The notes under the pieces were generated by a model, which did no database searches, was not told the origin of the DNA, and saw only the letters and a list, made by a program, of their open reading frames with translations. From Escherichia coli (lineage in GTDB: Bacteria > Pseudomonadota > Gammaproteobacteria > Enterobacterales > Enterobacteriaceae), in the NCBI RefSeq assembly GCF_003018235.1, contig NZ_CP027437.1: a DNA stretch of 64,000 nucleotides; one strand, given 5' to 3'. Shown one piece after another: positions 159 to 13,281 of the stretch (the stretch's first letter is position 1; every line of letters begins with the position of its first letter). The position numbers were made by a program, and so were the translations under genes.

Positions 159-1265
159 ATGAATAAAACAATAACGGCGCTTGCTATCATAATGGCTTCA
201 TTTGCCGCAAACGCGTCTGTATTACCGGAAACTCCTGTGCCATTTAAAAGTGGTACCGGAGCAATTGATAACGACACTGTCTACATTGGTTTAGGTAGCG
301 CAGGTACAGCATGGTACAAGCTGGATACACAGGCCAAAGATAAAAAATGGACAGCGTTAGCTGCATTCCCTGGTGGGCCGAGAGATCAAGCAACCTCTGC
401 ATTTATTGATGGTAATCTGTATGTGTTTGGCGGCATTGGCAAAAACAGCGAGGGCTTGACTCAGGTATTTAATGACGTACACAAATACAACCCCAAAACC
501 AATAGCTGGGTTAAATTGATGTCGCACGCGCCGATGGGCATGGCGGGCCATGTGACTTTTGTACACAACGGCAAGGCTTATGTTACTGGCGGTGTTAACC
601 AGAATATCTTCAATGGCTATTTTGAAGATCTCAACGAGGCTGGAAAAGATTCAACCGCTATAGATAAAATCAACGCCCACTATTTTGACAAAAAAGCAGA
701 AGATTATTTCTTCAATAAGTTTCTGTTGTCTTTTGATCCCTCAACACAGCAATGGAGTTACGCTGGCGAATCTCCCTGGTACGGAACGGCTGGTGCGGCG
801 GTTGTGAATAAAGGTGATAAAACCTGGCTTATTAATGGCGAAGCCAAACCAGGATTGCGAACGGATGCCGTATTTGAACTTGATTTCACCGGTAATAATT
901 TAAAATGGAATAAGCTTGCTCCCGTCTCATCACCAGATGGCGTCGCTGGCGGTTTTGCAGGCATGAGCAATGACTCACTGATATTTGCCGGAGGGGCCGG
1001 ATTCAAAGGGTCACGGGAAAATTACCAAAACGGTAAGAACTATGCGCATGAAGGCCTGAAAAAATCATATAGCACTGATATTCATCTTTGGCATAACGGG
1101 AAATGGGATAAATCTGGTGAATTATCGCAAGGTCGGGCCTACGGAGTATCATTGCCCTGGAATAATAGTTTATTAATTATTGGCGGTGAAACTGCAGGCG
1201 GCAAAGCGGTGACGGATTCAGTTTTAATTTCTGTGAAGGATAATAAAGTCACAGTACAAAACTAA
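159..1265 (+). CDS. nanM: N-acetylneuraminate mutarotase NanM (YjhT), periplasmic Kelch-repeat protein
   Basis: 368-aa reading frame from ATG 159, with AGGAGA at 145-150. Signal peptide MNKTITALAIIMASFAANA. Full-length match by eye to E. coli NanM, and nanS follows as in the nanCMS operon. Confidence 0.93.
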   Translation: MNKTITALAIIMASFAANASVLPETPVPFKSGTGAIDNDTVYIGLGSAGTAWYKLDTQAKDKKWTALAAFPGGPRDQATSAFIDGNLYVFGGIGKNSEGLTQVFNDVHKYNPKTNSWVKLMSHAPMGMAGHVTFVHNGKAYVTGGVNQNIFNGYFEDLNEAGKDSTAIDKINAHYFDKKAEDYFFNKFLLSFDPSTQQWSYAGESPWYGTAGAAVVNKGDKTWLINGEAKPGLRTDAVFELDFTGNNLKWNKLAPVSSPDGVAGGFAGMSNDSLIFAGGAGFKGSRENYQNGKNYAHEGLKKSYSTDIHLWHNGKWDKSGELSQGRAYGVSLPWNNSLLIIGGETAGGKAVTDSVLISVKDNKVTVQN

Positions 1266-1329
1266 CGCTTCAGGGTCCCAGTAAAGGGGCCCTGCTATCA
1301 ATTTGTCATTTGTATTACGCGAAAATTAT

Positions 1330-2310
1330 ATGAACGCAATAATATCGCCCGATTATTACTATGTTCTTACCGTTGCTGGTCAGTCTAATGCCATGGCGTA
1401 TGGCGAAGGACTGCCATTACCGGACAGGGAAGATGCGCCTCATCCCAGAATTAAACAATTAGCGAGATTTGCGCATACGCATCCCGGAGGCCCGTCATGT
1501 CACTTTAACGACATTATTCCACTGACTCACTGCCCACACGATGTTCAGGATATGCAGGGTTATCACCATCCTCTGGCAACGAATCATCAAACACAGTACG
1601 GCACCGTTGGCCAGGCACTGCATATTGCACGGAAATTACTGCCCTTTATTCCTGATAACGCAGGGGTTCTCATCGTTCCGTGTTGCCGTGGCGGATCGGC
1701 TTTTACCGCGGGCAGCGAAGGGAAATATTCAGAACGGCACGGAGCCAGCCATGATGCTTGTCGTTGGGGAACGGATACTCCGCTATACCAGGATTTAGTC
1801 AGCAGAACGCGAGCCGCACTGGCAAAAAATCCGCAGAACAAATTCCTCGGCGTATGCTGGATGCAAGGCGAATTTGACTTAATGACCAGTGACTACGCGT
1901 CACACCCTCAACACTTTAATCATATGGTTGAAGCCTTTCGTAGGGAGCTAAAACAATACCATTCTCAGCTTAATAATATTACTGACGCACCGTGGTTTTG
2001 CGGCGATACCACCTGGTACTGGAAAGAAAATTTCCCTCATGCGTATGAAGCTATTTATGGCAATTATCAAAATAATGTTTTAGCCAATATTATTTTCGTC
2101 GACTTCCAGCAACAAGGTGCAAGAGGACTGACGAACGCGCCTGATGAAGATCCAGACGATTTAAGCACGGGATATTACGGTTCAGCGTACCGGTCACCGG
2201 AGAACTGGACGACGGCACTGCGAAGCAGTCATTTCAGCGCGGCAGCCCGTCGGGGGATTATTTCTGACAGGTTTGTAGAAGCAATTTTGCAGTTTTGGCG
2301 CGAAAGGTGA
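1330..2310 (+). CDS. nanS: 9-O-acetyl-N-acetylneuraminate esterase NanS (YjhS)
   Basis: 326 aa from ATG 1330 (MNAIISPDYYYVLTVAGQSNAMAYGEG...). SGNH-like GQSN motif. Position directly after nanM. Confidence 0.92.
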   Translation: MNAIISPDYYYVLTVAGQSNAMAYGEGLPLPDREDAPHPRIKQLARFAHTHPGGPSCHFNDIIPLTHCPHDVQDMQGYHHPLATNHQTQYGTVGQALHIARKLLPFIPDNAGVLIVPCCRGGSAFTAGSEGKYSERHGASHDACRWGTDTPLYQDLVSRTRAALAKNPQNKFLGVCWMQGEFDLMTSDYASHPQHFNHMVEAFRRELKQYHSQLNNITDAPWFCGDTTWYWKENFPHAYEAIYGNYQNNVLANIIFVDFQQQGARGLTNAPDEDPDDLSTGYYGSAYRSPENWTTALRSSHFSAAARRGIISDRFVEAILQFWRER

Positions 2311-2317
2311 GCGTTCA

Positions 2318-2518
2318 TTAATTTGATTTATTTGCATCCATTAGCGCTTTTAACTGCTCCGGCGTAAACGGTGGTTTGCGTCGGTGCAACATCGCATGGC
2401 AATTAGGGCACACAGGAAGCAAATCATTAACTGGATCCAGCTGGTAATCCTCTTTAATGGCTGAAAGCGGCACCAGGTGATGCACATTAAGCAATTTCAG
2501 AACCGCATGCTCATACAT
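2318..2518 (-). pseudogene. HNH endonuclease remnant (C-terminal HNH half only)
   Basis: 66-aa ORF with HHLVPLS...NDLLPVCPNCHAMLH, which is the second half of an HNH motif. The usual upstream Cys pair and N-terminal domain are absent and no ORF continues upstream. Its stop lies 7 nt from the nanS stop, in convergent orientation. Confidence 0.5.
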
Positions 2519-2655
2519 ATTTCCCCCTAAGTTTGCTCACTGCCTTTAATTTATGTCACAGGCAATGTAATTCACCTGAAGCTCATCTTGAATCTGTCCT
2601 TCTACTTAGTCATTACCCTACTGGCACAACCGACCTCAAGATGAGCTTCTTACTT

Positions 2656-3264
2656 TTAACGATGTATCAGAACAATCTTGCGCCGGGAGAATAGCGTTTC
2701 CGCAGACAGCTGGAATTTATATTCCGCGGCCTTCAGCTTTCGCGATTTAAGCATTTTCATCGTGATACCCCTTATTTTCCCTGACTCAACCTGTCTCTTG
2801 ATTTCGCCGGTGCTCAGCATGAGCTGCTTTTGCAAAATCGACAGCAGGCTGACCTGAAACGAACGGGAAATCCTGACGCTAACCTTGACCCATTTGCCGG
2901 GAGAAAGGCTGGCTAACCACTGCTCCTGAATGCGAAAATCAGGCCGACCCGATAGCTCTGCGTTGTTCCGCTTCAGCATCGCGATATCACAGGAAAAATG
3001 TTGAACCGTGGCTGCATCGTTGCTCATCAGCCGGTTATGAAGTTCGCGGTCAATTTTGCTGACGTGCAGGCGCGAAAATAGGGAGATATTCCAGGTGTAA
3101 TCACAGTGTGTGCATTTATAGATACTCCACACGTCCAGCACCTTCTTTTGCGAATTAATCCGAAATGCACCTGATGGCGTGAAGTCCCGTTTAATGTTGC
3201 ATGAAGGGCATCGCTTCGCAATGCGCTGATACCCCACGGGCGTGACGGTCCATGTAACTTTCAT
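2656..3264 (-). CDS. Zinc-ribbon protein, DUF1062-like (hypothetical)
   Basis: 202-aa ORF with CPSC...(31 aa)...CTHC near the N-terminus. The overall pattern resembles the DUF1062 family from memory. Not verified by search. Confidence 0.5.
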   Translation of the reverse strand: MKVTWTVTPVGYQRIAKRCPSCNIKRDFTPSGAFRINSQKKVLDVWSIYKCTHCDYTWNISLFSRLHVSKIDRELHNRLMSNDAATVQHFSCDIAMLKRNNAELSGRPDFRIQEQWLASLSPGKWVKVSVRISRSFQVSLLSILQKQLMLSTGEIKRQVESGKIRGITMKMLKSRKLKAAEYKFQLSAETLFSRRKIVLIHR

Positions 3265-3559
3265 AACCTACCTTTTTTAACCCATACAAAACCGGATCCG
3301 TACTGAACGGACCATGGATGTTTATGTATGAAAAATATTTAAGAGATATTTTTCAGAGGGTTAAAAAAAGATTTCCAACTATGCAATCCTGTCGGTGAGC
3401 AAAGAGATATAGCGAGACTATCAAAACGGCAATTATTGGGTATATGAGTTCAATCAATATTCATGATGGTTATGGCTTGTTCTATTGATCTGACACATTA
3501 AACACGGCGCATTAATTTTGTATGTTTTATGAACAACCCAACAACAAAAGGAGCGCGAT

Positions 3560-3811
3560 ATGACACAGCACGAACGGTTTTGTCAGGCCTGCGGAATGCC
3601 GATGTCCGCACCTGATGCGCAGGGGAGTAGCGATAAATACTGTGCATACTGCAGCGATAGCAACGGCAATCTTAAACCCTGGGAAGAGGCGGTATCAGGC
3701 TTGGCCAGCTTCCTTGATTCCTGGCAAAAAGTCGGTCCAGAAGAAGCACAGAAGCGTGCAAAACGTTATCTGACGGCAATGCCTGCCTGGGCTCATAAAG
3801 CGGACGAGTGA
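3560..3811 (+). CDS. Small zinc-ribbon domain protein (hypothetical)
   Basis: 83-aa ORF with AAGGAG at 3548-3553 upstream of the ATG. Motif CQACGMP...CAYCSD gives four Cys in a zinc-ribbon arrangement. Confidence 0.6.
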   Translation: MTQHERFCQACGMPMSAPDAQGSSDKYCAYCSDSNGNLKPWEEAVSGLASFLDSWQKVGPEEAQKRAKRYLTAMPAWAHKADE

Positions 3812-3875
3812 ATAACAAAGTCAGGGTGATTTAGGCAGTCTATCTTCACTCCGCTGATTCCATTAAGGAGAGCCG

Positions 3876-4267
3876 ATGTTTTCTCACATTATGCTTGGAA
3901 CCAACAACCTGCCACGCGCCATTGCATTCTACGATCCGTTGATGGATATGCTGGGGTATCCCCGCGGCGGCAGGAAGAGGAGATCGCATGGTGGGGCGTT
4001 TTCAACGGTAATAACACTACGGCACTGGGTATCAGTAGGCCATTTGATAAACAGGTTGCCACGACCCGAAATGGAGTGATGGTCGCCCTGATTGCGCGTT
4101 CTGCCGAACACATCCAGCAAGTTTCATGTGCTAGCTTTAAATCACGGTGGCACTGACGAGGGAGCACCTGGCCAGCGTCCGCATTACGGCGAAGGGTTCT
4201 ACAGCGCTTACGTCAGAGACACCGATGGCAACAAGCTGGCTTACGTTTATTACACCGCACAATCCTG
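3876..4267 (+). pseudogene. VOC/glyoxalase-family protein gene disrupted by two frameshifts
   Basis: Start MFSHIMLGTNNLPRAIAFYDPLMDMLGYP is in frame 1. The middle (EEIAWWGVFNGNNTTALGISRPFDKQVATTRNGVMVALIARSAEHIQQV) is in another frame. The end (HVLALNHGGTDEGAPGQRPHYGEGFYSAYVRDTDGNKLAYVYYTAQS*) is in a third frame. Shifts lie near 3960-3972 and near 4121 (extra T in caagttTcat). Confidence 0.8.
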
Positions 4268-4512
4268 AGAACGATAAAGCGGGGGCCTCAGCGCCCCCAC
4301 CTGAAACTAAACCGATCCCGCAGATGTCAATGAGCGTTGAACGAGTTGATAAATGCCGAGATGTCTGACTGTTTTTACGCCAGAACTCCATGGTGTGACA
4401 ACCATACACATACTCCCTTCTTGACACCTTTAAACCATTTAACCGCATGCCTCTGTCTGCCCTGCAGGGACGGCTGATGCCTGTGTGTTGTCTGGCGGTA
4501 AGGAACAATACT

Positions 4513-4674
4513 ATGTACGCAAAATCCTTTATCGCTCTCGACGGGAATGGTCGTCTGACCGGTGCCCGTACTGCGCAGACCGCCCCTTACGATCGTTATA
4601 CCTGCCACCTCTGCGGTAGCGTGCTGCAATACCATCCTGAATACATCACCGAACGCCCGTGCTTTGAACAGTAA
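4513..4674 (+). pseudogene. Short zinc-ribbon ORF, probably the N-terminal remnant of a longer gene
   Basis: 53 aa from ATG 4513 (AAGGA upstream). YTCHLCGSVLQYHPEY...CFEQ* looks like a CxxC...(H) N-terminal module. Downstream sequence is broken across frames. Confidence 0.3.
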
Positions 4675-5266
4675 CCAACACACTGACAGAGGGCGGCGAA
4701 AATGCTTTATGCAAATCTTGATGCAAAGGCAGCCAGACGAATTCGTAAGTTACGCTTTTACGTGGCAGATACTCAAAGCAGACTGGCATTGTAGCGACGA
4801 TTGCCACGGTGAACGCTATTGTATGGCATGTAGTACCTGAGACTTCAGCCGCCCAGTAGATATAGCATCATGAAAAAACTGAAATGCTTTCTTGCCAACA
4901 ACTCACTGAGCTAGTATGCCTCCACCGATGTAACAATTAGAGCAAGCGTCAAAGTGCGAAACTGCCCTCACGTAGCTGCAAGTTAACACCAGGAAATCCT
5001 GGTTCAAACACGACCAGCTCTATGTTAGCGGCAAGCAATCGTTGAACTAAACGCATATGCAGCCGGAGATGAAAGTTAGGAAAAAAGCAGAGGCTGATAA
5101 GAATTATGCACGTTGAGCTGGGATCGTAATACCCCACTTAAAATGTACAAGGGGAGTAGTCTAATGATGTTAAATACGAACCTTCAGTATTGTTCATTCA
5201 CCAATTTTCCCATATTCTCTCATCATTAATATTCTCTGCCGAATTTTATAGGGCTAACTCGCTGAA

Positions 5267-5473
5267 ATGAATGACAAAGCTTTAACCTTGAAAGATGTGG
5301 TGGCTTACTTAAAGTTGGCAGAAAAAACAGCGTATAGGTTGACTAGCGAAGGCAAATTGCCGGGATTTAAGGTTGAAGGCTCATGACGCTTCAAACGAGA
5401 GGATTTAGATATGTGGATTGAAGGTCAGAAGACTCAAAGCTACCCGAGTATCACAAAATCCAATCGTGGTTGA
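5267..5473 (+). pseudogene. Excisionase/MerR-type helix-turn-helix (HTH_17-like) gene with an in-frame TGA
   Basis: MNDKALTLKDVVAYLKLAEKTAYRLTSEGKLPGFKVEGS*RFKREDLDMWIEGQ.... The stop at 5384-5386 occupies the position of the conserved Trp (G-x-WRF motif), which fits a TGG->TGA change. Confidence 0.7.
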
Positions 5474-5666
5474 TCAAGTGGATAAACATGAAAAGTCGGT
5501 AGCCCTCAAAGGCCACTTGCCACATGCAGTGAAGCAAGCCGTTGTGCAAGCTCTACTGAAAGAAGGTGATATCGCCCGAACGTTGCTCAAGGATCCACAA
5601 GTTATGGCAAGTTATGTTGAGCTGATTTTCGACATGATGAAGCAGAATAAAAATATGAATATCTAA
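5418..5666 (+). CDS. Hypothetical 82-aa ORF (non-ATG start), overlapping the tail of the HTH pseudogene
   Basis: ORF track only. TTG start, no recognisable motif. Could be the frameshifted C-terminus of the upstream HTH gene. Confidence 0.2.
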   Translation: MKVRRLKATRVSQNPIVVDQVDKHEKSVALKGHLPHAVKQAVVQALLKEGDIARTLLKDPQVMASYVELIFDMMKQNKNMNI

Positions 5667-5708
5667 AAGATTTTGGGCTATCTATTACGTTTTAAAATGA
5701 GATAAATA

Positions 5709-8246
5709 ATGATAAATGACCATGAAGAACTAGAACTTGCTAAAGCTCAGGCAAAAGAAATATGGAAGATCCTTGATTATGTTCGAGGAGCATCACCTAT
5801 ATCTAATTATCGCTCATTAGCGTATTCAATCTTCTTCGTACGCTATCTTCAATCCAATACAGGTCAGCATTTTGAGGCAGAAAGGTTCGACTCTTTTAAT
5901 GTCATCGCCCAGTATTCCTACGATCTTGTAAACTATGCCGTTCAACTTGGATTGATTCATAGCGACGTATCTAAATTCTTAATTTATTATTTAGAAAACA
6001 CACTCCGTTCATTTGTCAATATTGATGAGTCTTTTGTTCGTTATGCAATTAGAGATGGTCTACTCAATAAAACCCCTGCAATAGCGTCGCTTTCTTTATC
6101 AGAACTGGATTTACTTTTTGCCGAGAATGAAGGTAAGTCAGGAGGTGAGTTTTATACCCCTAGAGACGTCAACTTATTGGTTAAAATATTAGGATTGAGT
6201 TATCAACCAAAGTCAATATGTGACCCATTTGCAGGTGCTGGAAACACAGCATTTCCTTTTGCCAATACTGGTATTGAAAAAGTTAGGATTGATACTCAAG
6301 AAATTAATAGAGATGCTTACTTTAAACTAGTAATAAGTAGAGTCATCAGGAAAATAGAAGGTCGAGACTATTTCGGCGATTCCCTATCACAACCATTATA
6401 TCAAGAAAATAAATATGATCTGATAGTTTCTTTCCCACCTTTTGGCATGAAAATTCCTAAAGCCACTCGAAATAATATTTACTATAAAACAAGTAATAAG
6501 TGGCTGGATATTACTGAAATCTTGCCAGAAAGTAGAAGTGATTGGTTTATAACATTATCAATGCTTCCAGCCCTTTCTGAGGGGGGTAAGATACTAGTAG
6601 GTATGTCACTTGGGGCTTTGACAAGAGCAGGCTCTGAGGCAAAGGTTCGTGAGTATTTAGTCTCTCGCGGAATTATCGAACAAGTAATTCTTTTACCTAA
6701 AAATATTTATTACTCTACGGCTATCTCAACTGTACTTCTTGTCCTCAACTCAGGAACAAGTAACATAAATAACAGAAGTATTAAATTTGTAGATGCTTCA
6801 CTGTTTTACGAGCCTGCCCGTGGTCGAAACACCCTCACAACAAAAAATATAAATGAGATCGTAGAGGCTTGTCATAAAGATGGCCGATTTAGTATTAGTT
6901 CATCTCATACCCAAATAGCAAACAGAGACTTTAATTTAGATCCGTCTCTTTATGTACGTAAAGATCTCAAAATCAGTGAGGTTTCTTTAAAAAATTTTAG
7001 AGGATACTCTGACTTTAAAGTTTCGATACATCCTTCTTTAAATGTATTGGTTGGTGAGAACGGCGTCGGGAAAACTTCGATATTAGAAGCATTAGCATGT
7101 GGCCTTGGTCCTTTCCTTACTGCTATGCCTGATGCTAAAGGAAAACTGATAAAAAAATCAGATATCCATATAAGTTCAAAAGGAATCGCAAATTATGCTC
7201 GAATATCGATTGAAACAACATCAAGTTTAAGTTGGGATCTTGTGGCAAAGGGGGTTGATGTTTCCGAGCCCCCTAAGATAGGAACATCAGCATTAACTAG
7301 CTACGCTACTCATCTTGTAGATAGTCAGTCTGAATATCCACTCATTGCTTATTATGGGACTAACCGTGCTCTTACTTCTACCAGTTCTAAAGTTGCAATA
7401 AATCCATTCGAGAAAGAAAATCGTGGGGAAGGTTATGACTTTGCTTTAGATGCTAAAGTTAACTACGGCATCTTAAAGAACTGGTTTTCAAAAATAGAGG
7501 TTGATGAGCTTCGAAAACGTGATGAACTAAAAGACCATAAATTCATTCATCCGGCTAAGAGACTTGTTTCAGAGGCTGTTTACCAGATTGTTGATCGAGC
7601 TACATGCTTGGAGTTCGACAAAAATAGTAACGATGTTATGGTTCATTGGAAAAATGAGCAGGGAGAGTGCGTAAAGCTTACATTGGAACAACTAAGTGAA
7701 GGGTATAGAAATATGGTATCCCTGACCATTGACCTAGTGAGGCGTGCTTATTTACTTAATCCTACCAAACCGAAACCGCTAACAGTTAATGGGATCGTTT
7801 TAATTGATGAAATTGAACTTCACTTGCACCCTAGATGGCAGCAAAAGATTTTAAATGATCTTACTAAGCTGTTTAAGAATATTCAGTTTATTGTCACGAC
7901 ACATAGTCCTCAAGTCTTAACAACAATCAAAGCCGATTGTATCCGTATTGTTTCCGTCAATGCTAACGAAGCAAAATTAGTGACAGGAACTACTACTTAC
8001 GGTTCTGAAAGCTCAAGAATGTTGGAAGATGTTTTAGGTGGTAACAATCGCGCCCAACATCTTGATATTGTTAAAAAACTAAACCGTTATACAGAGTTAG
8101 TAGAGGCCGACAAATGGGATACCGATGAGGCATTAGAACTCAAAAAAGAGTTATATAAATGGGGTGGTCAGACAGAAGACGAGCTTCAAAAATTAGAAAC
8201 TGATATTCGAATTCGCGAGTTCGAGCGTGGCAATGAAAAAGATTAA
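5709..8246 (+). CDS. Fusion protein: HsdM-like N6-adenine DNA methyltransferase domain + PtuA-type (AAA_15/21, ABC/OLD-like) ATPase
   Basis: 845 aa. The N-terminal ~415 aa carry an HsdM_N-like start (IWKILDYVRG...YRSLAYSIFFVRYL), GGEFYTPRDV (6141-6170), motif I DPFAGAGN (6222-6245), the motif IV position SFPPFG (6429-6446) and ILLPKNIYYSTAISTVLLVLN. The C-terminal ~425 aa carry LKNFRGY, Walker A GENGVGKT (7053-7076), LSEGYRNM, Walker B IVLIDEIELHLHP (7794-7832) and IVTTHSP. Confidence 0.8.
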   Translation: MINDHEELELAKAQAKEIWKILDYVRGASPISNYRSLAYSIFFVRYLQSNTGQHFEAERFDSFNVIAQYSYDLVNYAVQLGLIHSDVSKFLIYYLENTLRSFVNIDESFVRYAIRDGLLNKTPAIASLSLSELDLLFAENEGKSGGEFYTPRDVNLLVKILGLSYQPKSICDPFAGAGNTAFPFANTGIEKVRIDTQEINRDAYFKLVISRVIRKIEGRDYFGDSLSQPLYQENKYDLIVSFPPFGMKIPKATRNNIYYKTSNKWLDITEILPESRSDWFITLSMLPALSEGGKILVGMSLGALTRAGSEAKVREYLVSRGIIEQVILLPKNIYYSTAISTVLLVLNSGTSNINNRSIKFVDASLFYEPARGRNTLTTKNINEIVEACHKDGRFSISSSHTQIANRDFNLDPSLYVRKDLKISEVSLKNFRGYSDFKVSIHPSLNVLVGENGVGKTSILEALACGLGPFLTAMPDAKGKLIKKSDIHISSKGIANYARISIETTSSLSWDLVAKGVDVSEPPKIGTSALTSYATHLVDSQSEYPLIAYYGTNRALTSTSSKVAINPFEKENRGEGYDFALDAKVNYGILKNWFSKIEVDELRKRDELKDHKFIHPAKRLVSEAVYQIVDRATCLEFDKNSNDVMVHWKNEQGECVKLTLEQLSEGYRNMVSLTIDLVRRAYLLNPTKPKPLTVNGIVLIDEIELHLHPRWQQKILNDLTKLFKNIQFIVTTHSPQVLTTIKADCIRIVSVNANEAKLVTGTTTYGSESSRMLEDVLGGNNRAQHLDIVKKLNRYTELVEADKWDTDEALELKKELYKWGGQTEDELQKLETDIRIREFERGNEKD

Positions 8247-9021
8247 TAAGCTAGATGAGCCAAATCGGCTTGGTGTGTTCAAGGCTACTCATCCTAATGC
8301 TTTGTGGGAGAGGGATAAAAACTCAATTGAAGAGGCTTTCCGTTGTTGCATTGCCAGATATCAAGAAACTCTACAACAATTACGTACGGACCAAGGTAAT
8401 TTATGTGCATATTGTGAACAGGATTTAATGTCTGGAACTAATGGGGCATTAGATGACTGCCGTATTGAGCATTTTCATCCGAAATCTAAACGTGAACAGG
8501 GAGAACCTAATTGGGCTTTGGAATGGAGCAATTTGTTAGTTGTTTGCTGTGGCGGAAATCAAAGTAAAGTTGTTAATCCTGGGCAAAGATTTGATGCTGA
8601 TCCCAAAAATTACTCTTGCGATGTACCAAAGAGTGACAAAATTTTAGATACCATTATATTAAATCCACTTAATTTACCTGAATTAAATATCTGGAAGTTT
8701 CATCGTTCTTCGGGGCAAATTTCCGTAAATGAAGATTCCTGTTTAGAATTTGGTATAAGTGTTGAAATGGCACACCAAACAATTAAAGAATTGAATTTAA
8801 ATTCCCCTCGATTAATTAGATTTCGAAAGGCTATTCTAAATAATCTCAACATTTTAATAACAGAAAGGCTGAAGAAGGGACAAACGGTAGAGCAAGCTGT
8901 TAGATTTATTGCCATATCACTCTTTAGAAAAAATGGAGCAGGTGATTGGCCCTCTTTTTTTAGTGCAACACGATATTATTTAGGTCAGCAGGCTGAGCTT
9001 GTTTTAGCCCAACCTATTTAA
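8233..9021 (+). CDS. PtuB-type HNH nuclease (TIGR02646-like)
   Basis: 262 aa from ATG 8233 (GTG 8227 also possible). Overlaps the stop of the upstream gene by 14 nt. Motifs CAYCEQ (8404-), CRIEHFHPKS (8467- for EHFH), EWSNLLVVCCGG and SCDVPKSDK follow the CxxC...EHxxPK...NL..aC order typical of Septu and retron-Ec78 PtuB. Confidence 0.75.
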   Translation: MKKINKLDEPNRLGVFKATHPNALWERDKNSIEEAFRCCIARYQETLQQLRTDQGNLCAYCEQDLMSGTNGALDDCRIEHFHPKSKREQGEPNWALEWSNLLVVCCGGNQSKVVNPGQRFDADPKNYSCDVPKSDKILDTIILNPLNLPELNIWKFHRSSGQISVNEDSCLEFGISVEMAHQTIKELNLNSPRLIRFRKAILNNLNILITERLKKGQTVEQAVRFIAISLFRKNGAGDWPSFFSATRYYLGQQAELVLAQPI

Positions 9022-9040
9022 CATACTTTCAACTAGTTAG

Positions 9041-9063
9041 AGAGGCTGCTTTTGGCAGCCTCT
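9041..9063. terminator. Hairpin between convergent operons (putative bidirectional terminator)
   Basis: agaggctgc-ttttg-gcagcctct forms a 9-bp stem. It sits between the + strand stop at 9021 and the - strand stop at 9082. Confidence 0.55.
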
Positions 9064-9081
9064 TGCAGAGTGCAGAATCGA

Positions 9082-10515
9082 CTACAGGGGCGATGCTAGC
9101 TCAGAGAACCAAGCGTGAACTGATCTGTAAAATGTGCTGATTGACCAAAACTCACTGCATGCAGCAACTAACAGAATGACCACTAAGAGGATCACTACAG
9201 TAGAAGTCATTCTTTCCACACGGCAGTATGATCCCATCGCATCTTTTACAGGTTGTCTAGCCAGTTCCTGATAATCCAGCTCATCCAGAAATCCGTATAA
9301 TTTAGTTCTCCAGGTGGTTCTAACTCTTTCAAGTAATGAAATTGTTTGCCTATTAATATAGACAGACATTCCATAGGAAATAACTATATAAACCGCGATA
9401 GCACAAAAAACCAAAGCGTAAATATTTTGCAAACCAACTGATTTTACTGCATCCAGACTGTAGCGAATAACCAAGACACTAATTACAAGAGCCATATCTT
9501 TCCATAAGGAAGAGGACAAATCTCGGGATTGCTGAATGATCTTTTGTGTATCTTCAGCCAGCGTTTTCCGCAAATCACCCAAGGATTTCATAGTATCTTT
9601 ACCACCAGTCCTGATATGGGCCTTATACATTAACCGTGCAGACTCCAAAGCTGATGAGAGTCGAAGCATCACTCCCTCACAAAAGTTCAGGTCTGAAGGC
9701 CACTCTCTAGCCAGCTCGCTGGACAAAAACGTATGTTTCAGCTCAGTTTCATTCCCCTCTAGAAAAATCCACTTTGCCGCTTCCTGGATAATATCAAAAG
9801 CAGGTAACGCTGCCGTCTCATCGCCGAATGCTATTTTTCTGGGAGGCTTTCCCGCAAGCCCCACCATCATTTCGTCAGCAAAAAAAAGTTCATTTGCAAA
9901 ACATTTCAGCAACTCTCGGCATCCTAGCAATTTCCATATCTTGATTGCTTCATCAGTCTTCTCACTACAAGTTTCAAGTATCCAAGGGGCAATGGCATCT
10001 GGAGGAAGAAAAGTTGTTGAATAACATTTGATGATACTTTTTGTTACTGAAGGCTTAGTGATAGCTGTTGCATCACCAGCACTCACCGGCTGTATCTCCT
10101 TCCATGGATGCACATACCAACTTATTGTCTGAAAGCCTTCAGTAATAAACAGCCCATAAATATGTTTGTACCGACAGAGTTTGCTATCTTGAAGTAAAAA
10201 AGTGCGCCATCCTTCTAAGGTAAAAAGCCTCAGTATCCCCGGAATTTCATTATAAGTGATGGTAATGTAGTGCTTCTGCCCTGGGACCCCCTCTCTCGGA
10301 TGAATAACATCTCTGCTCTCATCGATAAAAACGATCTTGAGATCTTCCGCATGTACATCCACTATTTCTCCCCATAAATCAAGGGATTCACTATCCATTG
10401 TGGCGGAAATAAAAAGCTTATGGATAGACACCTGCTGGTCCTCTGTGATCACAAGGTCAGATAAATGTCGTGAGTGGCATATAGCCTTACCGATTTTTTC
10501 CAATATCGATATCAT
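9082..10515 (-). CDS. Hypothetical 477-aa protein with C-terminal transmembrane helices
   Basis: Long AT-rich ORF. The soluble N-terminal ~330 aa show no motif I recognise. The C-terminal ~140 aa hold hydrophobic segments MALVISVLVI, IYALVFCAIAVYIVISYGMSVYI and STVVILLVVILLVAACSEFW. The start ATG overlaps the upstream gene by 29 nt. Confidence 0.6.
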   Translation of the reverse strand: MISILEKIGKAICHSRHLSDLVITEDQQVSIHKLFISATMDSESLDLWGEIVDVHAEDLKIVFIDESRDVIHPREGVPGQKHYITITYNEIPGILRLFTLEGWRTFLLQDSKLCRYKHIYGLFITEGFQTISWYVHPWKEIQPVSAGDATAITKPSVTKSIIKCYSTTFLPPDAIAPWILETCSEKTDEAIKIWKLLGCRELLKCFANELFFADEMMVGLAGKPPRKIAFGDETAALPAFDIIQEAAKWIFLEGNETELKHTFLSSELAREWPSDLNFCEGVMLRLSSALESARLMYKAHIRTGGKDTMKSLGDLRKTLAEDTQKIIQQSRDLSSSLWKDMALVISVLVIRYSLDAVKSVGLQNIYALVFCAIAVYIVISYGMSVYINRQTISLLERVRTTWRTKLYGFLDELDYQELARQPVKDAMGSYCRVERMTSTVVILLVVILLVAACSEFWSISTFYRSVHAWFSELASPL

Positions 10516-11548
10516 CTGTTACCAATCCTGCAGTCACAATTACAATTCGTTTTCGCCCGTCTTCCATATTTTCTACTTCTGGTGCATTGTCTTCATCGTA
10601 GATAATGATTACATCTTCCAATGTTTCCAGTTTTCTCTTCCGGGGCTTCTGAATGTTATCGGGAATGATGCGGAAAGATTCACCTGAAATTCCTAAATCC
10701 TTTATTTTACGAAAAAAATACTTAACCAGAGGGTGTTCTTCCTCCAAAGGACCAAAAATCTGGGTCAACAATGGCAGTGCTTCATCAGTATTAAAATCCT
10801 GTTCGCCATGGCGTAAAGTTTCATAAATTTTGTTTACTCCGCTGCGCTTGATCTCTTCAGGTAGTAAGTTTCGATGCTTTTTATATACATCTTTTAATAC
10901 AGTAACTAGCTTATCGCTGAGCTGAGTTGGGTCATTGACGCGCTTAACCTGTAGAAATCGTTCAAAATAGACAGAGATGTTAGTACGTTTGCTGCGATCT
11001 CGTACGACAACTAATCCGCCCGGCAAATCTTCATTCAGCCGTACCAGTGCGATTTTCTGCATGGCTTCGGCTTTTTTAACGAAACTTTCGCGAAAGCGTT
11101 CGAGTTTAGGTACCTGAAACTCATCTCCTTCAACATCCAGCACATAACGGACTACATCTTCATTGTCATACTTAATCAACGCATACAGTTTCTCATCGTT
11201 GAGTGTATGAAGTTCAAAAAGGAAAAAAACGCCCATACTGGCATTCTTGGTATGGTGGTGAGACTGAAAATCGCTTGCCAATAAGGAGGATTGCTCAGTA
11301 AAGCAGCCGATATCGGTGTCTGCATGTTCCCTGATGATCCTCAGGATTCGCTCTGTATTTGACAACTCCTTAAAATGAAACATATTGCCACTAACTGCAG
11401 ATTTGATACGTTCCAGAAAGAAATCAACATGCTCCGGAGGGGAAATTTCGCTGAGTAAAACAGGGACTTCCAACTCACCGCCAACCACATGAAAAATCAT
11501 CCTTTTTATTGATAATGCATTGATTTCTTCATCCGTTAAAAAACTCAT
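10487..11548 (-). CDS. YejK/NA37-like nucleoid-associated-protein family member (hypothetical)
   Basis: 353 aa. Motif order resembles the NdpA/YejK family: IKRMIFHVVG near the N-terminus, MGVFFLFEL...KLYALIKYD, QKIALVRLNED and VVVRDRSKRTNISVYFERFLQV. Assigned by eye only. Confidence 0.5.
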   Translation of the reverse strand: MSFLTDEEINALSIKRMIFHVVGGELEVPVLLSEISPPEHVDFFLERIKSAVSGNMFHFKELSNTERILRIIREHADTDIGCFTEQSSLLASDFQSHHHTKNASMGVFFLFELHTLNDEKLYALIKYDNEDVVRYVLDVEGDEFQVPKLERFRESFVKKAEAMQKIALVRLNEDLPGGLVVVRDRSKRTNISVYFERFLQVKRVNDPTQLSDKLVTVLKDVYKKHRNLLPEEIKRSGVNKIYETLRHGEQDFNTDEALPLLTQIFGPLEEEHPLVKYFFRKIKDLGISGESFRIIPDNIQKPRKRKLETLEDVIIIYDEDNAPEVENMEDGRKRIVIVTAGLVTDDIDIGKNR

Positions 11549-11744
11549 TTTTATTTCTCAATATAGTGTTTATATTTACTACCGTGAGCCATCTTACCTA
11601 AGCGTAGAACGTGGCGGAAAACACGATAACATTATTGCATAGCTTACGGCGTAACTTATCCTCGCCCCAGACAGAATAAACGTCAAAATAAAATAATGAA
11701 AATATGATCGAGACAGCATTAGCTGCCCCGCTTTCTTAGACTTT

Positions 11745-12998
11745 TTACATTATTAGGGCAAAATCAAACGGACTCACCCCCTTCTCCCGATTCGCATCCA
11801 GATAATTTGCCCACCACTGCAGCATCAACCTACGCTCCCCAAGATGTTCCGCCTTATGGATGTATGCCGCCCGCACAGAGCTACGCTCCTGATGGCTCAT
11901 CTGCCGCTCCACTGCATTCCTCGACCACAATCCTGATTCAATAAGTGAACTACAGGCCATCGTCCTGAAACCATGCCCACAGACTTCCGTTTTGGTGTCA
12001 TAGCCCATAACTCGCAAAGCCTTGTTCACCGTATTCTCACTCATCGGCTTATGCGGATCGTGATCGCCCACAAAAATCAGCTCTCGATTTCCATTCATGC
12101 TTTTGATCTTTTCCAAAATAGCTAAGGCCTGCCGCGATAAGGGTACAAGATGGGGAGTTCGCATCTTCGAACCACGCTGAGAATGTTTAACACCGTCCAA
12201 CGGTTCACGCTCACCGGGGATCGTCCACATGGCCGTTTCAAAATCCACTTCTGACCAACGGGCAAAGCGCAGTTCGCTTGAACGGATGAAAACTAACAAA
12301 GTGAGTTCGACAGCCAGTCGAGTTAACGGCCTGCCGGAGTAATGATCAATGCGGTGAAGTAATTCAGGTATGCGGTTAAGCTCCAGAGCCGCACGATGCT
12401 GTCTTTTAGCAGTAGCAACCGCACCGGTAATCTCTTGCGCGGGGTTGTAGTCGATTAAGCCGCTCTGAACGGCAAAGCGCATAATCGCGGTAGTTCGCTG
12501 CTGTAAACGGGCGGCGACTTCAAGACGTCCGGATGACTCCACCGCTTTAATGGGTACAAGAAGATCCCGAGTCTTAAGCTCTGCAATGTTCCGCTTACCG
12601 ATAGCAGCAAAGAGATTATCTTCTAGGCTTTTCAATACACGAGCACTATGCGATGCAGACCACTTCTGATTACTGGCATGCCAGTCTCTGACGACCACTT
12701 CAAACGTTATCGCCTCTTGCTCCTGTTCTACCTTAACCGCTTTCTTGTTTTCACTGGGATCGACGCCGTTCGCTAAAAGCTTACGCGCTTCGTCTCGCCG
12801 CGATCGAGCATCAGCTAACGAAACTTCAGGATACTTCCCTAGCGCCAGCATCTTCTCTTTACCACCGAAACGATAACGAAGCCGCCAGTATTTGGAGCCG
12901 TTAGGGTGAACCAGCAAAACCATGCCTTCACCATCAGTAAGTTTATAGGCTTTTGCTTCAGGCTTTGCCGAACGAACCTTCACATCACTCAGAGCCAT
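11745..12998 (-). CDS. intB: P4-type tyrosine integrase (IntB-like)
   Basis: 417 aa from ATG 12998 (MALSDVKVRSAKPEAKAYKLTDGEGM...YWRLRYRFGGKEKMLALGKYP). C-terminal catalytic region contains HGFR...R...Y. Directly adjacent to leuX. Confidence 0.9.
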   Translation of the reverse strand: MALSDVKVRSAKPEAKAYKLTDGEGMVLLVHPNGSKYWRLRYRFGGKEKMLALGKYPEVSLADARSRRDEARKLLANGVDPSENKKAVKVEQEQEAITFEVVVRDWHASNQKWSASHSARVLKSLEDNLFAAIGKRNIAELKTRDLLVPIKAVESSGRLEVAARLQQRTTAIMRFAVQSGLIDYNPAQEITGAVATAKRQHRAALELNRIPELLHRIDHYSGRPLTRLAVELTLLVFIRSSELRFARWSEVDFETAMWTIPGEREPLDGVKHSQRGSKMRTPHLVPLSRQALAILEKIKSMNGNRELIFVGDHDPHKPMSENTVNKALRVMGYDTKTEVCGHGFRTMACSSLIESGLWSRNAVERQMSHQERSSVRAAYIHKAEHLGERRLMLQWWANYLDANREKGVSPFDFALIM

Positions 12999-13158
12999 GA
13001 TGAATATCCTTTCAAGGGTTCTGTGTGGGTACAAACATTATCGAACCGGGATATACCCGCAGTTGTACCCGCATCAGTAAGTTGATGTAGATTGAATCAG
13101 GTTGACTTAGGTTGAGTGAAAAAGCGAGGAAAGCCTTGCGGATACTGGATTTCAGGCA

Positions 13159-13183
13159 TAAAAAAAGACCTCAGTTGAGGTCT
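13159..13183 (-). terminator. leuX rho-independent terminator
   Basis: On the minus strand, agacctcaactgaggtct forms a hairpin followed by a T-run (the A-run at 13159-13166 on the plus strand). Confidence 0.7.
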
Positions 13184-13196
13184 ATTTACATACTTA

Positions 13197-13281
13197 TGGT
13201 GCCGAAGGCCGGACTCGAACCGGCACGTATTTCTACGGTTGATTTTGAATCAACTGCGTCTACCGATTTCGCCACTTCGGC
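13197..13281 (-). tRNA. leuX: tRNA-Leu(CAA)
   Basis: The reverse complement reads GCCGAAGTGGCGAAATCGGTAGACGCAGTTGATTCAAAATCAACCGTAGAAATACGTGCCGGTTCGAGTCCGGCCTTCGGCACCA. It has a CAA anticodon loop, a long variable arm and an encoded CCA. Confidence 0.97.

Follow-up and report, generated by a model that had tools for sequence, protein, structure and literature searches.

Septu is among the commonest bacterial defence systems, and infection sensing by its standalone PtuAB pair is poorly understood. The two proteins, the ATP-binding cassette (ABC) ATPase PtuA and the HNH nuclease PtuB, form an assembly of six PtuA and two PtuB subunits, in which the nuclease is inhibited by ATP binding; as standalone Septu, the pair acts on DNA. 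As a nuclease effector, PtuAB is modular and is kept inactive by ATP or by an added antitoxin or sensor, such as the reverse transcriptase and multicopy single-stranded DNA (RT-msDNA) of retrons. Here, we analysed a stretch of 64,000 nucleotides from Escherichia coli (contig NZ_CP027437.1), referred to below as the window, and in particular its gene at positions 5709–8246. The locus is a Septu-type PtuA–PtuB system, the ATPase of which carries an N-terminal domain related to HsdM, the methylase subunit of type I restriction-modification (R-M) systems.

Several guards of type I restriction are already known. PrrC resides inside EcoprrI, where the R-M complex keeps it latent and a phage anti-restriction peptide releases it. 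PARIS, in which an ABC-ATPase hexamer of AriA holds the Toprim nuclease AriB, senses the anti-restriction protein Ocr. Ronin uses HsdM and HsdS as a bait together with the toxin RonA; its function is independent of HsdM catalysis, as the F287G change in the NPPF motif has no effect, and it often occurs in genomes lacking hsdR (bioRxiv 10.1101/2023.04.06.535777).

The HsdM-like::PtuA fusion and its nuclease partner

The features of the fusion gene and its partner are as follows.

5709–8246, plus strand: HsdM-like::PtuA fusion gene, 845 aa, with a linker-less join (open reading frame and translation; Pfam N6_Mtase and AAA_15/AAA_21; PADLOC PtuA)
5709–6965, plus strand: HsdM-like domain, aa 1–419, probably non-catalytic (AlphaFold2 model against HsdM structures; profile alignment)
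6141–6161, plus strand: motif X, GGEFYTP, aa 145–151 (G145–P151), part of the S-adenosylmethionine (AdoMet, SAM) pocket (conserved block)
6222–6245, plus strand: motif I, DPFAGAGN, aa 172–179, AdoMet-binding loop (conserved block)
6294–6302, plus strand: motif II, T196-Q197-E198, with the acidic residue that ends strand beta2 and binds the AdoMet ribose in such folds (invariant in the family)
6432–6443, plus strand: degenerate motif IV, F242-P243-P244-F245, in place of (N/D/S)PP(Y/F/W) (read off the sequence)
6966–8246, plus strand: PtuA ABC-ATPase domain, aa 420–845 (PADLOC PtuA; matches to PtuA in the PDB)
7053–7076, plus strand: Walker A motif of the PtuA domain, GENGVGKT (invariant in the family)
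7797–7829, plus strand: Walker B motif and D-loop of the PtuA domain, VLIDEIELHLH (invariant in the family)
8233–9021, plus strand: ptuB, the HNH nuclease partner, 262 aa, with its ATG at 8233 (PADLOC PtuB; TIGR02646; start as in PGAP)

The defining parts of a Septu system, a PtuA-type ATPase with intact Walker motifs and an adjacent TIGR02646 HNH gene in the same operon, are both found here, and the start of ptuB overlaps the stop of the fusion gene by 14 nt. The PADLOC PtuA model matches aa 420–843 of the fusion (5e-106), and the C-terminal 426 residues align end to end with PtuA of known structure (8ee4/8eea; for 8ee4, 2.7e-40 over aa 2–420). PtuB is recognised by the PADLOC PtuB model (2e-100) and by TIGR02646, with a score of 83.6 against a cut-off of 52.15. 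Thus, the sequence-only reading, which had regarded the gene as a methylase without partners, missed the system to which it belongs. Unlike the fusion, canonical PtuA has no N-terminal domain of about 420 aa, whereas here a degenerate HsdM is fused on. The current annotation reflects only that added part: fusion genes are labelled “N-6 DNA methylase” (as are the E. coli copies) or “type I restriction enzyme M protein”. Tools of the PADLOC type would call the locus Septu, while NCBI calls the fusion a methylase, and such labels will mislead methylome and R-M inventories.

The same PtuAB effector is used by retrons of type I-A, or Septu type II (Ec78/Eco7 and Ec83/Eco4). The PtuA proteins of Ec83 and Ec78 match the fusion as well, that of Ec83 scoring on par with the E. 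coli Septu PtuA 8ee4, and the HNH protein of Ec83 is the solved structure nearest to PtuB (2.5e-23). However, the module added to the effector is RT-msDNA in retrons and a fused protein domain here. Assignment to type I-A retrons was rejected, since no reverse transcriptase was found and the NCBIfam models for the retron-type proteins of Ec78 were not reached (PtuA, 329 against a cut-off of 500; PtuB, 127 against 150). The flanking open reading frames checked for a retron reverse transcriptase were a pseudogene of an HTH_17-type regulator, a small remnant, an NA37-like gene, a hypothetical gene, and an integrase. No reverse transcriptase or RVT domain was found among these annotated or Pfam-scanned genes; no Rfam scan for a retron non-coding RNA was made.

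The N-terminal 419 residues are a genuine N6_Mtase/HsdM homologue and not a chance motif. Pfam PF02384 (N6_Mtase) matches aa 137–418 (E=4e-42), and the hsdM model TIGR00497 also matches (E=2e-35), with a score under that model's cut-off. An AlphaFold model of the domain (mean predicted local distance difference test score, pLDDT, 86) resembles the HsdM structures 3lkd, PacII M1/M2, and EcoR124I (crystal or cryo-electron microscopy), with a template modelling score (TM) of about 0.73. With type I HsdM proteins (EcoR124I, PacII M1/M2, EcoKI), the domain shares the AdoMet motifs and the two-domain architecture, which consists of an N-terminal helical subdomain (about aa 1–135) and a gamma-class methyltransferase of Rossmann type (about aa 136–418). 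It differs from them in the loss of the motif IV Asn, in the exchange of the HsdS-contact region for PtuA, and in a PF02384 score of about half the usual value: about 145 bits for the fusion family against 277–369 bits for six ordinary N6_Mtase proteins scanned together. The fusion-family profile aligns to residues 179–475 of EcoR124I HsdM; the alignment ends at residue 475 of 520, and PtuA begins at aa 420 of the fusion. In EcoKI, aa 470–529 of HsdM contact HsdS (PMC2647291). Thus, the C-terminal HsdS-contact region of HsdM is absent from the fusion, and PtuA stands in its place. In the full-length AlphaFold2 model (pLDDT 82, predicted TM 0.77), the junction at aa 410–430 has a pLDDT of 90–94; this order indicates that no flexible linker separates the HsdM-like domain from PtuA.

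Motif IV and the cofactor pocket across the family

The three motifs on which the sequence-only reading was based (the GEFYTP box, DPFAGAGN, and FPPF at 6432–6443) are all present in the translated frame 5709–8246. The surroundings of motif IV read K-Y-D-L-I-V-S241-F242-P243-P244-F245-G246, and in the profile alignment the family consensus yDLvvsfPPfglk lies opposite FDAIVSNPPYSVK of EcoR124I HsdM. F242 thus occupies the position of the catalytic Asn, and S241 that of the preceding Ser. That reading had also considered that Ser241 might take over catalysis after a local shift of register. This is unlikely, and Ser241 was rejected as a replacement catalytic residue: canonical, active-type HsdM proteins carry the same Ser, or an Ala, together with the Asn (as in IVSNPPY). 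Since this Ser directly precedes the Asn in such enzymes, Ser241 belongs to strand beta4 and is no spare catalytic residue.

A search with the whole protein through a word index yielded about 63 full-length fusions with 42–100% identity. Their hosts are Klebsiella, Yersinia, Providencia, Pectobacterium, Serratia, Pantoea, Aeromonas, Vibrio, Photobacterium, Shewanella, Pseudoalteromonas, Plesiomonas, and Undibacterium. Across these two proteobacterial classes the reading frames are intact and the length stays at 839–852 aa. The family of the HsdM-like domain is small and sharply bounded: an exhaustive HMMER scan of 1.8 billion representatives gave four full-length clusters (50% identity) above 260 bits, and the next-best scores, of about 128 bits, were at the level of ordinary HsdM.

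In 62 of the 63 full-length homologues, the motif IV Asn is replaced by F, L, I, or C; the weighted frequencies at this position are F 78%, L 10%, I 4%, N 4%, and C 4%. Neither proline (P243, P244) varies. At the fourth position, which stacks on the base, F makes up 87% and the remainder is I, L, or M, with the variants FPPI, FPPM, and IPPL found in the Undibacterium clade and in the member P0064. The alignment that the sequence-only reading had suggested, FPPF against NPPF, thus bears out a family-wide loss of the Asn, with the exception of a single member, P0092, which retains NPPF. In a rough neighbour-joining tree rooted on HsdM proteins and lacking support values, P0092 and the CPPF member are basal. 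The pattern is compatible with a fusion that came first and a loss of the Asn that may have followed.

The cofactor pocket shows the opposite behaviour. Within the domain, conservation is highest in the blocks of motifs X, I, and II, with a mean entropy of 0.84 bits, as against 1.9–2.6 bits in the variable segments aa 46–135, 256–270, and 346–360. The family consensus of motif X is G-[EQ]-F-[YF]-T-P, where P151 never varies and conservation of G145, F148, and T150 reaches at least 90%. In motif I (family pattern DPFAGxG), D172, P173, F174, A175, and G176 are invariant in both alignments, and G178 is invariant in alignment A2, with conservation of 90% or more in A4, the alignment of 26 sequences. 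The TQE of motif II is invariant. Most probably, therefore, to judge by these motifs, the domain still binds AdoMet; most probably, too, it does not methylate DNA. In type I enzymes the change of NPPF to APPA abolishes methylation while the subunit can still assemble (PMC5100572), and the same holds for F287G in the NPPF motif of the Ronin HsdM (bioRxiv 10.1101/2023.04.06.535777).

These data bear on the possibility that the domain is an active DNA methyltransferase with an unusual motif IV, which would mark host DNA so that PtuB spares it, in a compact R-M-like system. In its favour, the fold, AdoMet motifs, and invariant Pro-Pro are preserved, P0092 keeps NPPF, and residual activity of motif IV mutants is conceivable. 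However, at the position that should form the hydrogen bond with the target amino group, hydrophobic residues of varying identity (F, L, I, C) are found, and the stacking aromatic is lost in the clades with FPPI, FPPM, and IPPL. The mutants of type I methyltransferases in motif IV are inactive (PMC5100572; bioRxiv 10.1101/2023.04.06.535777), and Ser241, as noted, accompanies Asn in active-type enzymes. Moreover, the HsdS-binding tail is lacking, no target recognition domain (TRD) or HsdS was found in the window with the few seeds used, and the canonical HsdM proteins encoded in the same operons as some relatives keep NPPF or NPPY. Of the attributes of an active gamma-class methyltransferase, the fold and motifs X, I, and II are thus present, whereas the (N/D/S)PP(Y/F/W) motif is missing and no target-recognition partner was found. 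We consider an active methylase very improbable.

Pairwise ratios of nonsynonymous to synonymous substitution rates (dN/dS) were 0.11–0.19 for the HsdM-like domain and 0.04–0.09 for the PtuA part, with pairs lacking adjacent hsd genes included; the domain evolves 2–4 times faster than PtuA. The values for the domain indicate that it is functional and under purifying selection. An inert relic, or a mere oligomerisation scaffold left by an accidental gene fusion beside hsdR, would agree with the degenerate catalytic motif and with the faster evolution. Against it stand dN/dS well below 1 in all comparable pairs, those from loci without hsd genes included, the intact frames and constant length of the proteins, the invariant AdoMet motifs, and the independent recurrence of fusions between type I components and ATPases; such a relic is improbable. 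Taken together, the evidence makes it likely that this is a functional, non-catalytic, HsdM-like regulatory domain of a Septu system. The proposal of the sequence-only reading that the domain binds AdoMet yet is catalytically impaired, and so would act as a sensor or scaffold, is supported by the motif IV loss, the conserved motifs X, I, and II, and the dN/dS values, as far as sequence allows. The family may thus serve as a natural experiment, in which a recognisable sensor domain has kept its cofactor pocket and lost catalysis.

What a non-catalytic domain of this kind would detect can be considered from the same residues. It might be a reader of DNA or of a modified base, flipping adenine or N6-methyladenine into a hydrophobic pocket formed by F242 and F245, so that recognition of phage DNA by PtuAB would not depend on anti-restriction proteins. 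The domain keeps the base-flipping fold, the change from N to F makes the pocket aromatic and hydrophobic, and standalone PtuAB is itself active on DNA. In addition, two such domains on a PtuA dimer could form an HsdM-like clamp, as HsdM's N-terminal domains bridge DNA (PMC2647291). However, the protein is without a sequence-recognition module and the pocket residues differ between clades, and this explanation appears quite unlikely.

Linkage to type I restriction operons

The genomic context was analysed for 13 loci, namely eight loci of the family (one genome per species, 185,579 species, domain alignment) and five obtained by exact-protein look-ups. In all seven relatives of 62% identity or less with enough flanking sequence, the fusion gene and ptuB directly follow a complete set of hsdM, hsdS, and hsdR, so that the pair forms the 3' end of a type I R-M operon in 7/13 contexts. 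These loci belong to Moritella (L008), Marinomonas (L009), Shewanella (L010), two species of Undibacterium (L011 and L012), Vibrio crassostreae (L089), and Pseudoalteromonas (L090). In L008 and L010–L012, the fusion gene's start overlaps the stop of hsdR or lies immediately next to it. The absence of a specificity or restriction partner, which the sequence-only reading had noted, thus holds for the E. coli locus and the 64-kb window but not for the distant relatives, 7/7 of which lie behind hsd operons. The genuine HsdM proteins of these operons all keep NPPF or NPPY and provide an internal control for the degenerate motif of the fusion.

A block of seven genes, hsdM1(NPPF)-GmrSD-like-hsdM2(NPPY)-hsdS-hsdR-[HsdM-like::PtuA]-PtuB, was observed in L008, L010, L011, L012, and L089 (approximately positions 700–10000 of these loci). 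The layout of these five operons is that of a PacII-like M1M2S system with a type IV enzyme (GmrSD) between the M genes and Septu at the 3' end; the arrangement of hsdM1, hsdM2, and hsdS has been described for PacII-like M1M2S systems that form N6-methyladenine and N4-methylcytosine (PMC5100572). The operons of L009 and L090 come from a different type I family, the HsdM of which measures about 870 aa, and the HsdR of L090 carries EcoR124_C.

In the clade with at least 75% identity (E. coli, Klebsiella, Pseudescherichia, Pectobacterium, and Aeromonas), hsd genes are absent from the surrounding 9–10 kb, and the NPPF member P0092 is located on a short contig without hsd genes. Attachment to an hsd operon, as expected of a type I guard, is therefore absent at the orphan island of the window and present in the seven more distant relatives. 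A gene for a 55-aa HTH_17 protein stands at the head of the hsd-fusion operon in four relatives (Marinomonas L009, Shewanella L010, V. crassostreae L089, and Pseudoalteromonas L090) and survives upstream of the E. coli and Klebsiella copies, which points to an orphaning of the cassette. In Klebsiella and Pseudescherichia (L005 and L006), the HTH_17 gene is intact, 84% identical, and located about 280 bp upstream of the fusion gene; the copy in the window has 78% identity to the HTH at the head of the Shewanella operon (tblastn). The data are in keeping with an orphan cassette that arose when the hsd block was lost and HTH_17 was left behind, although the reverse order is conceivable.

The position of the fusion gene behind complete type I operons in distant relatives suggests that the presumably dead methylase is no enzyme but likely a sensor or bait guarding restriction. 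The tight overlap of stop and start codons and the recurrence with two type I families point to a functional link beyond co-transfer within an island. On this evidence from sequence and gene order, we give about an even chance to a Septu variant that guards type I restriction and uses a dead HsdM domain as sensor or bait. According to this model, a PtuA ATPase acquired a type I HsdM as a rigid N-terminal module, and the HsdM then would have become a pseudo-enzyme, serving as the input module that ties PtuAB to type I restriction. The ABC dimers of PtuA within the hexamer could present pairs of HsdM-like domains, as HsdS does in M2S1 complexes; in M.EcoKI, HsdM's N-terminal domains bridge over DNA or Ocr (PMC2647291). 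A phage counter-measure against type I R-M, either an anti-restriction protein that binds HsdM or mimics DNA, or a removal of AdoMet, would alter the state of the HsdM-like domain. Across the linker-less junction, the change would reach the PtuA ATPase; the PtuB HNH nuclease would then be released or activated, with abortive infection as the presumed outcome. The E. coli copy would be an orphaned version on a tRNA-Leu island, acting with or independently of a type I system elsewhere in the genome. Any single trigger, with an anti-restriction protein and SAM depletion as the candidates, is in itself unlikely.

Several points weigh against the guard model. The HsdM tail that contacts HsdS is missing, so canonical docking to HsdS is unlikely, and the grip on DNA mimics such as Ocr involves HsdS as well as HsdM (PMC2647291), while the fusion contains no HsdS. 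In six orphan contexts, selection maintains the domain although no hsd genes are adjacent, which implies that its role is not strictly dependent on a type I system encoded in cis. Adjacency of genes in defence islands can reflect co-transfer instead of function. Finally, the near-basal place of the NPPF member comes from the neighbour-joining tree, which has no support values.

A sharper form of the guard model, which predicts another trigger and makes contact with type I R-M unnecessary, is a dedicated sensor of AdoMet levels. The AdoMet-bound domain would hold PtuAB off, and depletion by a SAM lyase or a MetK inhibitor would produce an apo form that fires the HNH nuclease. Phages are known to deplete AdoMet as a counter to type I R-M and BREX, and sensing of cofactor degradation has, according to a recent review, not yet been found experimentally (PMC12707154). 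The strong conservation of motifs X, I, and II, with catalytic residues free to vary, and the persistence of the system under selection in orphan loci without hsd genes in cis are in favour of this form. However, pseudo-enzymes that use a cofactor only structurally also retain ligand-binding motifs, and the fast evolution of the N-terminal helical subdomain and two loops is a better fit to arms races between proteins. A sensor of this kind is therefore rather doubtful; if true, no earlier defence system would have been shown to detect depletion of a cofactor as a signature of anti-restriction, and nature would here have converted an enzyme into a metabolite receptor on an ABC-ATPase immune complex.

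The guard model can be compared with the three known guards. PrrC of EcoprrI, with which RloC is grouped, is an abortive-infection effector of ABC-ATPase type inside a type I hsd operon, and the operons in which ptuB follows an hsdR-linked fusion, as well as those with HsdS-PtuA proteins described below, share the placement logic of PrrC. PrrC itself consists of one polypeptide that includes an anticodon-nuclease domain and has neither an HsdM nor an HsdS domain, whereas here a dead HsdM (or an HsdS) is fused on and the HNH nuclease is separate. With Ronin, the system would share the use of type I parts as bait for anti-restriction proteins; Ronin, however, has an HsdM of intact sequence, an HsdS, and a membrane toxin of 61 aa, while here the HsdM is degenerate, lacks HsdS, and is covalently joined to PtuA. 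The likeness to PARIS lies in an ABC-ATPase hexamer that holds a nuclease and, in PARIS, is triggered by an anti-restriction protein, but PARIS has no methylase-like domain. Assignment to PARIS was rejected, as the partner is an HNH protein and not the AriB Toprim (DUF4435), and the similarity to AriA covers about 50 residues (E ~1e-6). MADS was rejected too, the MAD3 ATPase model NF047739 giving 40 bits against a cut-off of 420.

Parallel architectures were found in other bacteria. A second fusion family, in Photobacterium carnosum, Vibrio harveyi, V. lentus, and Pseudoalteromonas, joins an HsdS with two TRDs to a PtuA-like ATPase. In 3/3 loci examined (Photobacterium, V. harveyi, and Pseudoalteromonas), it is the only full-length S subunit of an operon hsdM-[hsdS::ptuA]-ptuB-hsdR, and in two of the three an additional gene for a protein of 208–230 aa with a weak Methylase_S match lies upstream. 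The HsdS-PtuA proteins of these loci are 849–878 aa long (L002, 8001–10550; L097, 8001–10637; L098, 8001–10559). A gene for a YgjP/WLM-like metallopeptidase was observed downstream of hsdR in all three, followed by an HNH gene in L002 and L097. An unrelated fusion of N6_Mtase (IPPF) and AAA_21 is followed by a DUF4276 protein (L093, 752–3639), and a stand-alone HsdM-like protein of 455 aa with FPPFGMR adjoins a half-HsdS with a single TRD (L095, 1320–3285). Among the 143 nearest cluster representatives of HsdM-like proteins outside the family, a match to NPP[FYW] is missing in about 40; most of these have another residue at the Asn position or a non-aromatic fourth residue, and the rest are fragments or give no match. 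The HsdS-PtuA, N6_Mtase-AAA_21, and FPPF cases indicate that both the joining of type I parts to ABC ATPases and the decay of motif IV in HsdM are recurrent. The coupling of PtuAB to type I systems in three forms (behind hsdR, as HsdS-PtuA, and as a separate methyltransferase-AAA_21 protein) suggests that guards of R-M are broader than PrrC, PARIS, and Ronin. Full-text literature searches returned no description of HsdM-PtuA or HsdS-PtuA fusions or of their coupling to hsdR, although a mention in the survey of ABC ATPases by Krishnan et al. (2020) is possible.

The tRNA-Leu island and neighbouring genes

The cassette lies on a mobile island with the following features.

4806–13216, no strand: mobile island of about 8.4 kb at tRNA-Leu(CAA) (comparison with Klebsiella, Pseudescherichia, and Pectobacterium)
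5267–5431, plus strand: small regulator of HTH_17 type, 55 aa, a pseudogene with an in-frame stop at codon 40 (tblastn)
11745–13034, minus strand: P4-type integrase (island gene)
13197–13281: tRNA-Leu(CAA) (island attachment)

The GC content of the island is 36–39%, compared with about 50–55% in the flanks. The island is 97% identical in Klebsiella sp. and Pseudescherichia, and with Pectobacterium only 5449–9038 is common. The system was found in 2/5426 complete E. coli genomes. Besides the fusion gene, a phmmer search with few seeds, non-exhaustive given how variable HsdS is, found no HsdM-, HsdS-, or HsdR-like reading frame in the window. In E. coli CFSAN018748, which has a 99.9%-identical locus, an hsdRMS system of the EcoAI family is located about 55 kb away and could be a partner in trans. 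Scans for promoters and terminators near the locus did no better than shuffled controls.

The upstream HTH gene was also compared with RptR, the regulator of type I islands, and this assignment was rejected, since RptR is an all-helical protein of 79 aa from another family. Between the HTH_17 pseudogene and the fusion gene lies a small open reading frame of 62–82 aa (5418/5478–5666, plus strand), which is kept in Klebsiella. It was rejected as a third component, being frameshifted in Pectobacterium and reduced to 14 residues in Aeromonas, and as a 3' remnant of hsdR, having no similarity to HsdR C-termini. It matches the C-terminus of PADLOC PDC-S15 weakly (E=2e-4) and looks like what is left, in decaying form, of the 3' end of a lost gene.

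Between ptuB and the integrase, the minus strand carries a homologue of the nucleoid-associated protein NA37 (NdpA-like) at 10487–11548 (PF04245, 1.3e-12) and, overlapping it, a gene for a 477-aa protein at 9082–10515, which has a hydrophobic C-terminal region and gave no Pfam or PADLOC match. This gene pair accompanies the Septu cassette in Klebsiella and Pseudescherichia, and could be another defence or island-maintenance module.

Outside the island, the window has about 670 bp with short overlapping reading frames at 3957–4631, where CFSAN018748 (L001, 3874–5132) contains an intact ISEc31 of the IS3 family. The nanM gene is intact in the window and frameshifted in CFSAN018748. In the variable region between nanS and the island, a DUF1062 protein (2656–3264, minus strand; PF06353, 4e-40) is encoded at the far edge.

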